Part shown: positions 1,119 through 6,080 of the stretch, one piece after another
Numbering within the stretch: the first letter of the stretch is position 1
Layout: the number at the start of each line of letters is the position of its first letter
From: an uncultured delta proteobacterium
GTDB taxonomy: Bacteria; Desulfobacterota; RBG-13-43-22
Length of the DNA stretch: 64,000 nt
Assembly (NCBI GenBank): GCA_963790475.1
Contig: CAWBOS010000011.1
Coordinates: 96,001-160,000, forward strand
Direction: 5' to 3'
Translations under genes and position numbers: made by a program
The notes under the pieces: generated by a model
What the model saw: only the letters and a program-made list of their open reading frames with translations
What the model was told of the DNA's origin: nothing
Databases searched by the model: none

Positions 1119-2052
1119 GACCCCTCCTTAGAATCTTGATATAGGTTAAGGTGTAAAAACCGAAACACTTCCCAAAAAACTGACTTTGTTTCCCCTCCAC
1201 CATAGAAAACGGCTGGGTGAAATCCAGGTTGTTCCTGATTCCATAAGGTCCGTCCTCACCGAGAAAAACGATGCAACCCTCGCTATTCAAACCGGCCGGT
1301 GATTCCTATCCCCAAGACGAAAAGCATGCTCCCGAGGTTTGAATCAAGACCTTAAAACTCACCCTTAGTAAAGTAATGAAATTGAATTGGTACCTGTAAA
1401 TCTATTTCCAGAGCTCGGTAACAGCCCCGGAAGGGGGAGGGGTTATCACCCATAAATTCTTGGTAACCTGGTCCCCAATCACTTCCCATCGGTGGGGAAG
1501 GGTGGAAAAGAAATGGAGGGTGTCTCCTTTTTTCAAAGGATAAACCTTCCCGTCAATTTCATAGTGTATCTCCCCCTGCAGGCAGAATATGAACTCTTCT
1601 CCTGGATGGGATTCCGGTTTGGCGGAACTCATGGTTCCTTTTTTGAGATGGGTCATCAGGGCCAGCATTTTGGCCCCCTTTAAGCGAAGGGCCAGGTATT
1701 TTATCTGCGTGGTTCCTGAGGTATTTCTAAAAACTTTTCCATTTTCTCTGGGAAGGTATTCAACGTTTTCAACATAATCGAAGGAGCCATTTTTTTCTTC
1801 TAAAAAATAGCCGATCTTTTCCTCCAAAGCATCAGCGATCTTCATCAGAACGGTTACCGTCGGGGTCATCTCACTGCGTTCCAGCTTGTGGTTCAAGTAA
1901 GCCGCTGTGCGGCAGAACCGTTTCTATGTAATCCTTCCTGAAAAATCTCTTCAGAAGTCCATTCGATAGGACGCATACCGTTTAGTCCAGTATGATACTT
2001 CAAACCCCCTCCTCATAGGAAGGGGAAATCCATCCTTATAAGGAGAAGTATC

Positions 2053-2940
2053 ATGATGAACAATTGGTATGACAAAACGATCCAAGCTCTTCAACTCAAC
2101 GGTAAAGGGGAACGCACCCAGGAAGCCTACGCCCGCTCCGTCCGCATGCTCACCCAGTTTTATAACAAAACTCCTGATTCCATCAGCGAACAGGAACTTC
2201 AGGATTATTTTCTTCAACGGAAAAATGTCGATAAGTGGGCCCCCAATACCATGCGGATATGCTATTGCGGCATACGCTTCTTTTTTGAAAAAGTACTCCA
2301 GCGCAACTGGCACATCCTCGGAATCCTCCGAGCCCAAACCGAACGAAGACTCCCGGCCGTCTTGAGCGTTGAAGAAGTCCGTAAACTCCTGGCCCAGGTT
2401 AAAACCTTCCAGAACTATGCCTATCTTTCCACCGTCTACTCCTGCGGTCTGAGACTTCAGGAGGGACTCTATCTCGAAGTCTCCGATATCGATAGTGACC
2501 GGATGATGATCCATATCCACCGGGGCAAAGGCGCCAAAGATCGCTATGTCCCTCTCCCCCAATCCACTCTCAGCCTGCTCCGTCGCTATTGGGTCACCCA
2601 CCGTCATCCTGCCCTCCTTTTTCCAGCCATCGGCCGAACCAGACAAGGCGTCAAGGAAGCTAAAACGCCCATGGCCAAAAGCAGTGTCCAAGGGGCCTTC
2701 CGTCGAGCCAAGTTTGCTGCCGGAATCCACAAAAAAATGGTCTCTGTTCATACCCTCCGGCACTCTTATGCCACCCATCTGCTTGAGGCCGGCGTCAACC
2801 TTCGGGTCATCCAAAGATACATGGGCCACGGCCAATTGGAAACGACCATGGTCTATTTGCATCTCACTCAAAAAGGTCAAGAGGATGCCTGCCAGTTGAT
2901 CAATCAGGTGATGGGGGGCTTAGACCATGACCACCATTAA
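2053..2940 (+). CDS. Tyrosine recombinase (XerD/IntI-like with N-terminal SAM-like domain)
   Basis: YSCGLRLQE, GKGAKDR, HTLRHSYATHLLEAG, MGH...TTMVY catalytic motifs. Confidence 0.93.
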   Translation: MMNNWYDKTIQALQLNGKGERTQEAYARSVRMLTQFYNKTPDSISEQELQDYFLQRKNVDKWAPNTMRICYCGIRFFFEKVLQRNWHILGILRAQTERRLPAVLSVEEVRKLLAQVKTFQNYAYLSTVYSCGLRLQEGLYLEVSDIDSDRMMIHIHRGKGAKDRYVPLPQSTLSLLRRYWVTHRHPALLFPAIGRTRQGVKEAKTPMAKSSVQGAFRRAKFAAGIHKKMVSVHTLRHSYATHLLEAGVNLRVIQRYMGHGQLETTMVYLHLTQKGQEDACQLINQVMGGLDHDHH

Positions 2941-4027
2941 TGAGATCTTTCGAACCTTCGGCCCCCAATACCTGGGGCGCTACGGTCAGACTATGCCTAA
3001 AATACACCGCCAGGTCATCGAGGCCATCATCGGCTGCCGTACCGAAGCCTGCGGCCTCGTCCTATACCAGTGTGAAAAATGCGGCCAGTCCCATCTGATC
3101 TATCGTTCCTGCGGCAATCGCCATTGCCCCACTTGTCAACACCATAAAACCCAACAGTGGTTGGATAAACAGATAAAGCATCAACTTCCCGGACATCATT
3201 TCATGATGACCTTTACCGTCCCCGAACAACTGCGCCGCTTTATACGGAAAAATCAGAGGGTGGCTTATTCCGCCTTGTTCAAAGCCTCCTCCGAGGCCAT
3301 CAAAAAGCTGGCTCCGGACGAAAAATACATCGGCGGTGATCTTCCGGGATTCCTCGGGGTCCTTCATACCTGGGGACGTACCTTGGAGTATCACCCCCAT
3401 ATCCATTACATCGTCCCCGGCGGAGCCCTCTCCACCACTGACGGTCTCTGGCATCCCTCAAGGATCGATTTTTATCTCCCGGTCAGAGCCCTCTCCAAAA
3501 TCTTTAAGGCCAAGTTCAAAAAGGCCATGAAAGAAGTCGGTCTCTTCGAGCAAATCCCTACTGAGGTCTGGCAGATCGACTGGAACGTCAACTCTCAAGC
3601 CGTAGGTTCCTCCGAAGCCAGCCTAAAATACCTCGCCCCTTATGTCTTCAAAGTGGCGATCTCCAATTCCCGCATCCTCAAGGTGGAAAACAACACCGTC
3701 TTCTTCCGATACACCAAACCTCATAGCCATCGGTTGAGGACTATGGCCCTCGGTTCCATGGAATTCCTCCGCCGTTTCCTTCAGCATGTCCTGCCCACCG
3801 GATTCATGAAAATCCGCTATTACGGCTTCATGAACCCCAATTGCTCGGTCCCTTTCGAAAGAATATCTACCCTCATTCAAATGGCCTATTCCTTCGTCTT
3901 GAAGATGCCCGAATATCAGCAAAGCCCTTCTCCAACTCCCATCTGTCCCAACTGCGGCGGAACCCTCAGATACCTCGTATCCTTCATCCCCGGTCTCACT
4001 CCTCAATTGACCCTGGACAGTTCTTGA
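2927..4027 (+). CDS. IS91-family (Y2 HUH) transposase with Zn-binding domain
   Basis: CEKCG...SCGNRHCPTCQ, LHTWG...YHPHIHYIVPGG, YLAPY, FLQHVLP..F.KIRYYG. Confidence 0.92.
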   Translation: MTTINEIFRTFGPQYLGRYGQTMPKIHRQVIEAIIGCRTEACGLVLYQCEKCGQSHLIYRSCGNRHCPTCQHHKTQQWLDKQIKHQLPGHHFMMTFTVPEQLRRFIRKNQRVAYSALFKASSEAIKKLAPDEKYIGGDLPGFLGVLHTWGRTLEYHPHIHYIVPGGALSTTDGLWHPSRIDFYLPVRALSKIFKAKFKKAMKEVGLFEQIPTEVWQIDWNVNSQAVGSSEASLKYLAPYVFKVAISNSRILKVENNTVFFRYTKPHSHRLRTMALGSMEFLRRFLQHVLPTGFMKIRYYGFMNPNCSVPFERISTLIQMAYSFVLKMPEYQQSPSPTPICPNCGGTLRYLVSFIPGLTPQLTLDSS

Positions 4028-4283
4028 ACGGTCTTCCTAAGACCCCCTTCTTAAATCCAAAATGTCAAAGAACTAAAGCGGTAGGGACTCCTATGTCCAG
4101 AGTCCTAAAAATCGATGGGTGCTTTTATCTGATCAGTGAAAAAAGGTATTGCCGTGCTTCGTAAGGTAAGTTCTTAGTCCTTTTCCTGTTCCCTGAGTCT
4201 ATTTATAAGCTTTTTATCCTCTCCTCAGTTCGTCCCCCTTCGAACCTTTACCCTTTATAGATCGTCATTATTTATCCGGGCTT

Positions 4284-4334
4284 CTTGAACAATGGATTGA
4301 AACGACCTTTCAGGATCGTCTCAATCCTTATTGG
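4284..4334 (+). repeat. attC-like hairpin at the right end of the element
   Basis: CTTGAAC-AAT-GGATTGAAACGA...TCGTCTCAATCC-TTATTGG; outer stem completed by TTCAAG from the left end. Confidence 0.7.
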
Positions 4335-4630
4335 ATAGTGGTCACTGAAACCCCTGCCTTTTCAGCCAACTGATTCAAAGACAGGTCTTTTTGTTTTCGA
4401 AGATGGGCGATCTTTCCGCCGATCGATGAAACGATTTTCTCGATTAATATTTCTTTCATTGGTAAACTTGATTATTTGGGATTGGCCATAAAATATAGTA
4501 AATGATTTATTAAATTATAGTTTCTCTTGTCAAGAAAAAAAATGGTCAAATTCTTTGGACAGGCTATTATAGTCCCGGGAGGAAAAGGCTTTTGATTCGC
4601 ACTGAATTTAAATTTACTTTTAATTTGAGA

Positions 4631-4751: not shown

Positions 4752-6080
4752 ATGAATGGCCGATCAGTTGAAGACGTGCTCCGTCTGGTGAAGGATAAGA
4801 ATATTAGTTTTATCCAGTTCTGGTTCACCGATATCCTGGGGCTGTTAAAAAGTTTTGCCGTAACCCCTTCGGAATTAGAGGAAGGGATGACCGAGGGCAT
4901 GGGATTTGACGGCTCCTCCATTGAAGGATTCGCCCGGATTGAAGAGTCCGACATGATCGCCAAACCGGACCCGGCCACTTTCCAAATGATTCCCTGGAGG
5001 GCCGGGGAACAACCTGTAGCCCGAATGTTATGCGATATCCTCGAACCGGATGGGACCCCTTATCCCGGCGATCCCCGGTTTGCCTTTAAACGGTTGCTGG
5101 CCAAAGCCAAGGAGAAAGGATTCACCTTATTTATCGGGCCCGAGTTGGAATACTTTTACTTCCAGGACAGTAACGATACCAATTTCCTGGACCTTGGCGG
5201 ATACTTCGATGCCCGTCCCCTCGATTTGGGTGGAGACCTGAGGCGGGAGACCATCTTCGCCCTTCAGTCCATGGGTATCAAAGTCGAATACAGCCACCAT
5301 GAGGTGGCCCCCAGCCAGCATGAAATCGACCTGCGTTACGCCGAGGGGCTTTCCATGGCCGATATGACCATGACCTACCGTCTGGTCGTCAAGGAGATTG
5401 CCCGAACCAAAGGGGTGTATGCCACCTTCATGCCCAAACCGATCTTCGGACAGAACGGCAGCGGCATGCATACCCACCAGTCTTTGTTTTTAGGAGAAAA
5501 GAATGCCTTTTTCGAACCTAGCGATCCTTTCCATCTTTCTCCCATTGCCAAATGTTATATCGCCGGGCTGATGCGACATGCCCGGGAAATGACGGCCATC
5601 AACAACCAATGGGTCAATTCCTATAAACGGCTGGTGCCCGGGTACGAGGCCCCGGTCTATGTCTCCTGGGCCCGAAGGAACCGTTCCACCATGATCCGGG
5701 TACCCATGTACAAACCGGGAAAGGAAAAGGCCACCCGCATTGAATTCCGCTCCCCCGATCCGGCCTGCAATCCCTATCTTTGTTTTGCCGTCCAACTGGC
5801 CGCCGGACTGGCCGGTATTGAAGGAAACTACCCGTTGCCCGATCCGGTGGAAGAAGATATCTTTGAAATGACCCCGGCCGAACGGGAGGGCAGAGGCATC
5901 AACTCTCTTCCCGGTAACCTTTATGCCGCTGTCGAAGAGCTTAAGAAAAGCACTCTGGTCCGGGAGGCTTTGGGGGATCACATTTTTAATAAATTCATTG
6001 CCAATAAAGAGATCGAATGGGACCACTACCGGACGCATGTCAGCCGGTATGAATTGGATAAATATCTGCCGATATTATAA
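4752..6080 (+). CDS. glnA: Glutamine synthetase type I
   Basis: FDGSSIEGF, HHEVAPSQHEI, ATFMPKP, NGSGMHTH, RIEFRSPDP. Confidence 0.95.
   Translation: MNGRSVEDVLRLVKDKNISFIQFWFTDILGLLKSFAVTPSELEEGMTEGMGFDGSSIEGFARIEESDMIAKPDPATFQMIPWRAGEQPVARMLCDILEPDGTPYPGDPRFAFKRLLAKAKEKGFTLFIGPELEYFYFQDSNDTNFLDLGGYFDARPLDLGGDLRRETIFALQSMGIKVEYSHHEVAPSQHEIDLRYAEGLSMADMTMTYRLVVKEIARTKGVYATFMPKPIFGQNGSGMHTHQSLFLGEKNAFFEPSDPFHLSPIAKCYIAGLMRHAREMTAINNQWVNSYKRLVPGYEAPVYVSWARRNRSTMIRVPMYKPGKEKATRIEFRSPDPACNPYLCFAVQLAAGLAGIEGNYPLPDPVEEDIFEMTPAEREGRGINSLPGNLYAAVEELKKSTLVREALGDHIFNKFIANKEIEWDHYRTHVSRYELDKYLPIL

Follow-up and report, generated by a model that had tools for sequence, protein, structure and literature searches.

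The stretch of DNA analysed here (the window: 64,000 nucleotides, positions 96,001 to 160,000 of contig CAWBOS010000011.1 from an uncultured delta proteobacterium) carries at positions 1892-4334 of its plus strand a complete mobile element of 2,443 bp, in which the gene for a tyrosine recombinase, Int, is followed by that for an IS91-family Y2 HUH transposase, Tnp. The element inserts without target duplication at a break that separates G from TT (AA^C in the complement, the caret marking the break here and below), and its preferred targets, GTTAGGC and GTTATGC, are mostly boxes of integron attC sites. As one bounded unit with int directly upstream of tnp, it belongs to the known IS91-plus-integrase (ISAzo26-like) group; the int-tnp group itself was already known, and what is new here is the target preference together with the attC-type targeting. 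An original prediction made from the letters of this DNA had proposed that integrase and HUH protein cooperate, an interpretation that our analysis partly supports. We tentatively favour a reading in which Tnp supplies single-stranded DNA and Int makes the G^TT join.

Boundaries and break point of the element

The limits of the element are given by empty sites. In two genomes of the same genus (L087 and L088; L-numbers are our labels for the compared loci), orthologues of the XRE-cupin gene that it splits, with amino acid identities of 86% and 82%, respectively, are uninterrupted, and the flanks in the window, which end at G1891 and resume at A4335, align to adjacent bases (...TTTGTGG^ATGGTC...). 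Because the flanks abut in both orthologues, the insert is exactly 1892-4334, with zero duplication and zero loss. The splitting of this gene had correctly been recognized in the original prediction, which also required the lack of a true 3-bp duplication; its coordinates, 1889-4340, are corrected by the empty sites.

A second copy, 100% identical over 2,443 bp, is present in the host genome of the window (G000, contig C10, 1651179-1653621; locus L002). Similarity between the two copies begins with TTCAAG, after one common G, and stops at ...CCTTATTGG. The junctions of the second copy read AAATG^TTCAAG ... TTATTGG^TTAGGCC and those of a Nitrospirota copy (L024) AAGA^TTCAAG ... TTTGG^TTTTAT, while the window copy has G^TT on the left and G^AT on the right. 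We place the break at G^TT because it is the sole position that fits all three of these copies; the Nitrospirota copy and the window copy differ precisely at the positions expected to derive from the target. For the window copy taken by itself a shared TGG leaves the cut ambiguous by 3 nt, as had been pointed out, and it is the second copy and L024 that settle the matter.

Both junctions are available for 53 distinct insertions, in which the left end was located by the left-end motif itself; the left base was G in 50 and A in 3, and the right dinucleotide was TT in 50, AT in 2 and GT in 1. These insertions and the 120 right flanks described below agree with the anticipated break at G^TT and with G^AT as its main alternative. 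Ordinary two-strand site-specific recombination was considered and excluded, as there is a single sharp cross-over and the shared overlap does not extend beyond GTT.

We propose that the window copy landed in a weaker G^AT site within the XRE-cupin gene and thereby inactivated it. The C-terminal (cupin) part of this regulator, with a Cupin_2 match, now occupies positions 1405-1891 of the minus strand, and the N-terminal (helix-turn-helix) part, of 41 codons plus 2 nt, positions 4335-4459 of the same strand; the insertion splits an Ile codon.

Target sites and integron attC sites

Over 120 distinct right flanks, from genome and metagenome loci, the consensus 3' of the break was TTA(G/T)G(C/T), with A at +3 in 84, G or T at +4 in 64 and 38, respectively, G at +5 in 67 and C at +6 in 57. 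The hexamers after the break included TTAGGC (21 flanks), TTATGC (9) and TTGGGC (4). As the register was set by a search for G followed by TT or AT, positions +1 and +2 of this consensus are partly by construction; positions +3 to +6 are free of this effect. Although G000 has few GTTAGGC sites (235 in 6.34 Mb, both strands counted), two of the five right flanks read in that genome carry this box.

When the element was removed in silico, 11 of 47 reconstructed targets were attC-like, compared with 369 of 8,181 control GTT sites (4.5%), according to a crude finder for which the boxes must agree in at least 5 of their 7 bases, AAC among them, and the folding energy must be no higher than -0.30 kcal/mol per nt. 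The clearest of these targets (L010, L012, L021, L034 and L065) are textbook attC hairpins of 59-88 nt and -20 to -57 kcal/mol, extending from GCCCAAC, GTCTAAC or CCCTAAC to G^TTAGGC, G^TTATGC or G^TTAGGT. A protein above the cut-off for the integron integrase, IntI, is encoded in three of the five host genomes tested, and none was found in G000 or in the Nitrospirota genome. Both arms of attC are used, TTA being preferred over TTG: L120 and L127 lie in the opposite box, GTTGGGC.

A minus-strand open reading frame (ORF) has its TAA stop exactly at the junction in L002, L021 (a SelR/MsrB gene) and L034, the flanking ORFs are antiparallel to the element in L002, L010, L021 and L034, and in three targets the attC bulges are on the arm that marks the plus strand (as read) as their bottom strand. 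The idea that the element is a cassette in register was dropped after this inspection of ORF orientation and bulge polarity: since it lies mostly on the GTTAGGC side and is inverted relative to the cassettes, it is not simply such a cassette. It was also considered that the TAA of the target might always be the stop codon of the neighbouring gene; this holds in only 17 of 71 junctions, against 9% of control triplets, and was rejected.

Many insertions lie outside attC sites, among them the window copy, at G^ATAGTGG, L013 and L020, each at a GTTAGGC that has no hairpin, and the full set of 10 copies in one Nitrospirota genome. The latter copies (L022-L030 and L045; flanks at approximately 2950-2990 and 5421-5460) are in a repeated, partly palindromic target family, ...ATTCAGG^TTGAAAT...GGAAAC, which is not attC-like by our finder. 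Several of 13 copies in a Cloacimonadales genome (L052-L064) have common flanks, ...ATAAGATTGTATCTTG^TTATATCC...GTTTGCAAC, and hence this genome also has a repeated landing site. In L032, where the element is at G^TTAGGC, group II intron domains (positions 2497-2804, minus strand; RF02001, 127.8 bits; RF01998, 49.7 bits) adjoin its left flank, and this intron may be a second attC-homing element in the same site.

Terminal hairpin, relatives and partial copies

The left end of the element (1892-1916, plus strand) consists of TTCAAG, TAA and a small hairpin, GCCGC-TGT-GCGGC (1901-1913), and is an inverted repeat of 4278-4290. Its TTCAAG completes a GTTCAAG box by using the flanking G. The small hairpin, of the form GCCGC-NNN-GCGGC, has become GCTGC/GCAGC in the Cloacimonadales family, a compensatory change. 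The right end is composed of an inner inverted repeat, GGGCTTCTTGAAC (4278-4290, plus strand), a 3-nt spacer, a hairpin (4294-4327, plus strand) and a tail of 6-7 nt ending in G, which in the window copy is TTATTGG (4328-4334, plus strand) with the break after the final G. The last 7 nt of the inner repeat form an R''-like box, CTTGAAC, that pairs with G+TTCAAG; 12 of the 13 columns of this repeat are invariant in a 17-sequence alignment (A1), and more than 120 metagenome contigs carry its exact motif.

The joined ends fold at -20.0 kcal/mol (top strand) and -20.8 kcal/mol (bottom strand) with DNA parameters, a z-score of about -7.4, and none of 500 mononucleotide shuffles was as low; for the right end alone the z-score is -4.66, a level reached by none of 200 dinucleotide shuffles. 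The hairpin that had been predicted for the joined ends is thus upheld as a fold, and its inner AAT/ATT pairing is not (47% of cells paired in the 17 sequences). Homologues carry the hairpin as expected, in 27 distinct versions of 27 to 67 nt. Its base, GGATTGA/TCAATCC in the window copy, is conserved and its tip is variable; pairs 1-7 are Watson-Crick in 25-27 of the 27, with compensatory changes at pairs 5, 6 and 7. At pair 8, 10 of the 27 have an A.C mismatch on the top strand, as does the window copy, which corresponds to G.T on the bottom (minus) strand, and other lineages have an additional base on the 5' arm at this position. The bottom strand folds better in 17 of 25 hairpins, these being kin sequences. 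Pairing amounts to 91% for the conserved stem over the 17 aligned sequences.

The boxes CTTGAAC and G+TTCAAG are complementary, and their Cloacimonadales counterparts, GTTCAAC and G+TTGAAC, are also fully complementary. Abutted ends should pair in every element that has terminal inverted repeats; the distinguishing features of this one are the asymmetric hairpin that separates the boxes and where the break falls. The layout of the hairpin is attC-like, with a 7-bp box, an unpaired spacer (3 nt versus 6-7 nt), a conserved second box of 7 bp, a 5' arm that carries a mismatch or an additional base, and a tip that varies in length. An Rfam scan of 8 loci gave no match to an attC-like family, the sole match being the group II intron in L032. 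The right end of L057 is short by 4 nt.

A scan of one genome per species yielded 63 loci with transposases 41-90% identical to Tnp, in Desulfobacterota-type metagenome-assembled genomes, Nitrospirota, Cloacimonadales and others. The 10 copies of the Nitrospirota genome are at least 99.9% identical and therefore spread recently. Besides the two full copies, G000 has a 410-bp deletion derivative with both ends, one 3' partial copy and two lone right-end modules.

Right ends without genes are common. We fetched 80 of the more than 120 metagenome contigs with an exact right-end motif, and among contigs with at least 700 nt 5' of the motif, tnp was found there in only 23 of 49. In the 26 contigs without tnp, the left-end motif lies 251-416 nt upstream in L120, L135, L154 and L175, which have the look of MITEs (miniature inverted-repeat transposable elements) in their size, and 1,587 nt upstream in L157; it was not found upstream in the other 21. 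The 1.6 kb bracketed by the two ends in L157 (6711-8353) has neither int nor tnp. It contains an Unstab_antitox/ParE pair and, on the opposite strand, a membrane ORF of 141 aa, and attC-like repeats intervene. This interval is either cargo or the product of two partial insertions in a cassette array.

In two unrelated genomes (L049, 5370-5473; L040, 2420-2571) the terminal hairpin unit, starting from TTGAAC, is found in tandem duplication, with a unit of about 51 nt in the former and a longer one in the latter. The joint of these units reads G^TTGAAC, and hence the inner box can act as a break site. Over window positions 4282-4388, which cover the hairpin module, the summed contig depth in runs X3 and X4 (248 and 40) far exceeded that over the genes (roughly 10-90), which is consistent with many lone modules or many relatives in groundwater metagenomes. 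As the hairpin module is abundant without the genes, it may spread alone. The IS91-int families of Mesorhizobium have ends unlike those of this element. G000 also contains clusters of adjacent tyrosine-recombinase genes (C13:39964-41528, C13:166296-167859 and C10:824457-826020) that are recombinase-in-trio-like and unrelated to the element.

Enzymes, mechanism and comparison with known systems

Both genes of the element are intact and conserved. Int (2053-2940, plus strand; 295 aa) is an Xer/IntI-type tyrosine recombinase with matches to Pfam PF00589 and PF13495. Tnp (2927-4027, plus strand; 366 aa) has the zinc-binding N-terminal domain (PF14319, E-value 6.5e-29) and the Y2_Tnp domain (PF04986, E-value 2.8e-54) and scores 373.8 bits against NCBIfam NF033538 (cut-off 125). 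The two genes overlap by 14 nt in the window copy, and in 41 of the 63 loci tnp is directly adjoined (gap of -10 to +15 nt) by a match to Int that spans 250 aa or more. Of the remaining loci, most are decayed or truncated where the contig ends; in L029 tnp is matched over its full length but no Int adjoins it, and in L033 there is just a recombinase of 30% identity, 445 nt upstream.

Among the NCBIfam models, Int scores 180.7 bits for XerA, 175.8 for IntI (TIGR02249), 152 for XerD and 140.5 for XerC, all of which are below the cut-offs. The match to TIGR02249 is in two stretches, model positions 178-234 being skipped, and the best matches to this model in G000 are the two Int copies. The best match in the Protein Data Bank is 2a3v (VchIntIA, IntI4; 118 bits), followed by XerA (4a8e; 107 bits). 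Int is accordingly an enzyme of the IntI/Xer type that lacks the hallmark insert of IntI. The catalytic R-K-H-R-H-Y residues are preserved, with R, H, R, H and Y in all 19 Ints compared and K in 18, a comparison that includes ISAzo26 (Aromatoleum) and one Mesorhizobium element; since these residues are kept across the family, the chemistry of Int is under selection. In a recombinase tree, of which rows L098 and L100 are to be disregarded, the IS91 Ints form a clade (support 83/92) that is weakly joined to IntI and two other recombinases (83/67), and no conclusion was drawn from this tree.

The reading in which Tnp supplies the strand and Int makes the join has, in our estimation, close to an even chance of being correct. 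In its favour, the break is G^TT with G^AT as its alternative, the target is a box of integron type, the joined ends are laid out like attC, and the IntI-like enzyme has kept its catalytic residues. The mobile unit would be bounded by TTCAAG ... hairpin ... G and be inserted without duplication between G and TT. The Y2 HUH transposase would copy the element out as single-stranded DNA by rolling-circle action, and on the closed strand the CTTGAAC and GTTCAAG boxes would pair around the hairpin to give an attC-like fold. Int would then carry out the exchange of one strand between AA^C and a GTTRRRY box of the target, and the insertion would be completed by replication, as for integron cassettes and the CTX phage. 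The single-stranded circle and the division of these steps between the two enzymes are what we infer.

Several observations weigh against this reading. Contigs of four sequencing runs stop at the element ends, with neither a circle joint nor an empty-site joint among them. Int reaches 175.8 bits on TIGR02249 against a cut-off of 265, is also below the XerA cut-off, and is approximately 34 aa short at the IntI-specific insert (34 residues versus 68 of IntI in 2a3v). The box consensus of integrons is GTTRRRY, with GWT for secondary sites, and the element's own box, GTTCAAG, does not match it. The attC insertions are mostly at the complement of the inverse core (the GTTAGGC side), where they part a cassette ORF from its attC and point in the direction opposite to the cassettes, and an IntI-like enzyme would not be expected to favour this. 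Covariation, which had been predicted for the stem, is weak in the conserved stem (0.071 versus 0.040, matched by 21 of 500 shuffles in the 17-sequence alignment). L031 and a diverged second copy in L023, both old, carry A at both junctions, so that ownership of the terminal G by the element is ambiguous by 1 nt. Finally, the element has the canonical IS91 layout, with ter upstream and one palindrome, and ori downstream of tnp and two; every feature of the ends also fits canonical IS91, in which, according to a 2026 study (PMC13181058), TnpA alone inserts the bottom-strand circle.

We consider it quite possible, if on balance doubtful, that the transposase does all of the cutting and joining, on the strand antisense to tnp, and that Int has an accessory role (e.g., resolution, termination accuracy or targeting). 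The account of IS91 in that study describes a layout of terIS-orf121-tnpA-oriIS, a bottom-strand single-stranded circle, one palindrome at ter next to the cut, two palindromes at ori in IS91 and IS801 and one in IS1294, insertion without duplication at a short target resembling the ter cut site, and an upstream overlapping accessory ORF that tunes termination (PMC13181058). By this route, Tnp would cut at AA^C about 7 nt 5' of the ori hairpin and then after CTTGAA at ter, the single-stranded circle would be closed, and the circle would enter another AA^C, best with a hairpin following, as in attC. The element has the IS91 layout, with int in the place of orf121 and overlapping by 14 nt; the target attCs mimic the ori junction (AA^C, 4-6 nt, hairpin); the hairpins duplicated in tandem in L049 and L040 have the appearance of a termination that came too early, at the GTTCAA^ of the inner box; and pairing of the inverted boxes would bring the 5' end beside the ter cut. 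However, this route leaves unexplained the retention of a catalytically intact Int next to tnp, the GTTAGGC target has just AA^C in common with the ter site CTTGAA^C, and it would be by coincidence that GWT alternatives and a box of integron type go together with an IntI-like protein encoded in the element. The canonical tetranucleotides are present in the boxes as GTTC^ and CTTG^, the break being 3 nt from the GTTC^ of the left box, but they are not observed breakpoints. As cutting there would yield progeny without the hairpin, and none is seen among complete copies, these are not working cut sites. Over the 120 flanks, the target beside the ori end is G^TTA(G/T)GC and not the IS91-type CTTG or GTTC (or GTCC), and the empty sites have neither GTTC nor CTTG at the ori-side junction; the empty sites and the attC reconstructions rule out canonical IS91 insertion after GTTC/CTTG, as had been foreseen.

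The remaining explanations are less probable. Recombinases and HUH proteins divide labour in integrative and conjugative elements, and it is conceivable, but unlikely, that Int both excises and integrates this element while the transposase serves only as a Rep, amplifying the circle after excision through rolling-circle replication. In favour of this, the two enzymes are conserved, with probable translational coupling, and at attC targets the two hybrid hairpins flanking the element would permit cassette-like excision. Nevertheless, copies without a flanking hairpin (the window copy and the 10 Nitrospirota copies) would be trapped, yet the latter spread recently, and replication from the canonical nick would meet the ter-like box 49 nt before completing the circle, with loss of the hairpin, whereas no hairpin-less complete copy was seen. 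Very unlikely, in our view, is an ordinary passenger cassette moved by a host integron integrase: the outline is cassette-like, attC sites are occupied and some of the hosts encode IntI, but G000 and the Nitrospirota genome lack IntI above the cut-off and nevertheless have 2 and 10 near-identical copies, the attC insertions are mostly inverted on the GTTAGGC side and many insertions lie elsewhere. Classical transposition with duplication of a 3-bp GTT (or a 1-bp G) is the least credible. It would account for GTT at both junctions in most copies and for A at both in L031 and the second L023 copy; however, the window copy has GTT and GAT although identical to L002, L024 has ATT and GTT, and the orthologous empty sites have a single GAT, which excludes a 3-bp duplication.

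If Int does make the join, the element would be a minimal two-enzyme transposon of single-stranded DNA, in which the HUH protein makes the strand and an integron-like recombinase places it; an IntI relative without the strand-reading insert would then be able to use GTTRRRY boxes on either arm of attC. An element within attC separates cassette ORFs from their recombination sites, which bears on the shuffling, freezing and seeding of arrays in environmental bacteria. We also raise, as an improbable extension, that the group is a living link between IS91-type rolling-circle transposons and integrons, in which the ori hairpin already constitutes an attC, the substrate of a proto-IntI devoid of the strand-selecting insert, and shed modules (alone, in MITEs or in tandem) could turn ordinary genes into mobile cassettes. 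Were this so, it would bear on the unsolved origin of attC.

Among known systems, the IS91 family (IS91, IS801 and IS1294) is like this element in its Y2 HUH transposase, the lack of target duplication and a short specific target, as well as in subterminal palindromes at both ends, two of them downstream of tnp, and an upstream ORF overlapping the start of tnp (PMC13181058). In our element the left palindrome, GCCGC-NNN-GCGGC, is 9 nt from the break and the right hairpin 7 nt, and in the Nitrospirota and L017 families the inner right repeat carries a second palindrome. Unlike the IS91 family, the element breaks at G^TT (AA^C) and not after CTTG/GTTC, its target extends to GTTAGGC, a full tyrosine recombinase replaces orf121, and the right inverted repeat is 44 nt inside the end, behind an extra hairpin.

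A closer relative is ISAzo26, which we take from its ISfinder grouping to be an IS91 member with an upstream tyrosine recombinase. Its record, from Aromatoleum, contains the int-then-tnp gene pair with a transposase 34.5% identical to Tnp, a left end in which a G^TT box is accompanied by a small hairpin of GC pairs, and a long hairpin beyond the inner repeat of the right end; the box and hairpin sequences of the single ISAzo26 copy compared are different. On Aromatoleum plasmid 2 (L098:1400-1460), ISAzo26 is preceded by a perfect palindrome of 30 nt ending ...GGGTCG^TTGGAC, and it may also have landed beside a hairpin at G^TT. In the papers searched, TnPedia/ISfinder text not being covered, there was no account of the G^TT break, the attC-like joint or attC targeting for IS91-integrase elements.

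With integron cassettes and their attC sites the element has in common the two inverted 7-bp boxes (..AAC / GTT..), the G^TT cross-over with its GAT alternative, and an unpaired spacer, second box, extra base on the 5' arm and variable tip; its targets are attC boxes, and IntI is the best solved relative of Int. It differs from cassettes in encoding its own enzymes, in an Int that is below the IntI cut-off and has no IntI insert, in its position mostly at the inverse-core side and inverted relative to the cassettes, and in having copies in genomes without a detected IntI. The CTX phage provides a precedent, in that it combines an HUH Rep, RstA, which makes single-stranded DNA, with XerCD, and its folded single-strand hairpin is integrated by one strand exchange; here, by contrast, a single element of 2.4 kb carries both enzymes, and dif does not serve as its target. 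IS1111-attC elements and group IIC-attC introns home to attC and spare the cassette ORFs, and they do so with unrelated enzymes, a DEDD transposase and a reverse transcriptase/ribozyme, respectively. By either mechanism, Int-made or HUH-made joining, the element described here joins these two as a third class of mobile elements homing to the attC sites of integrons.

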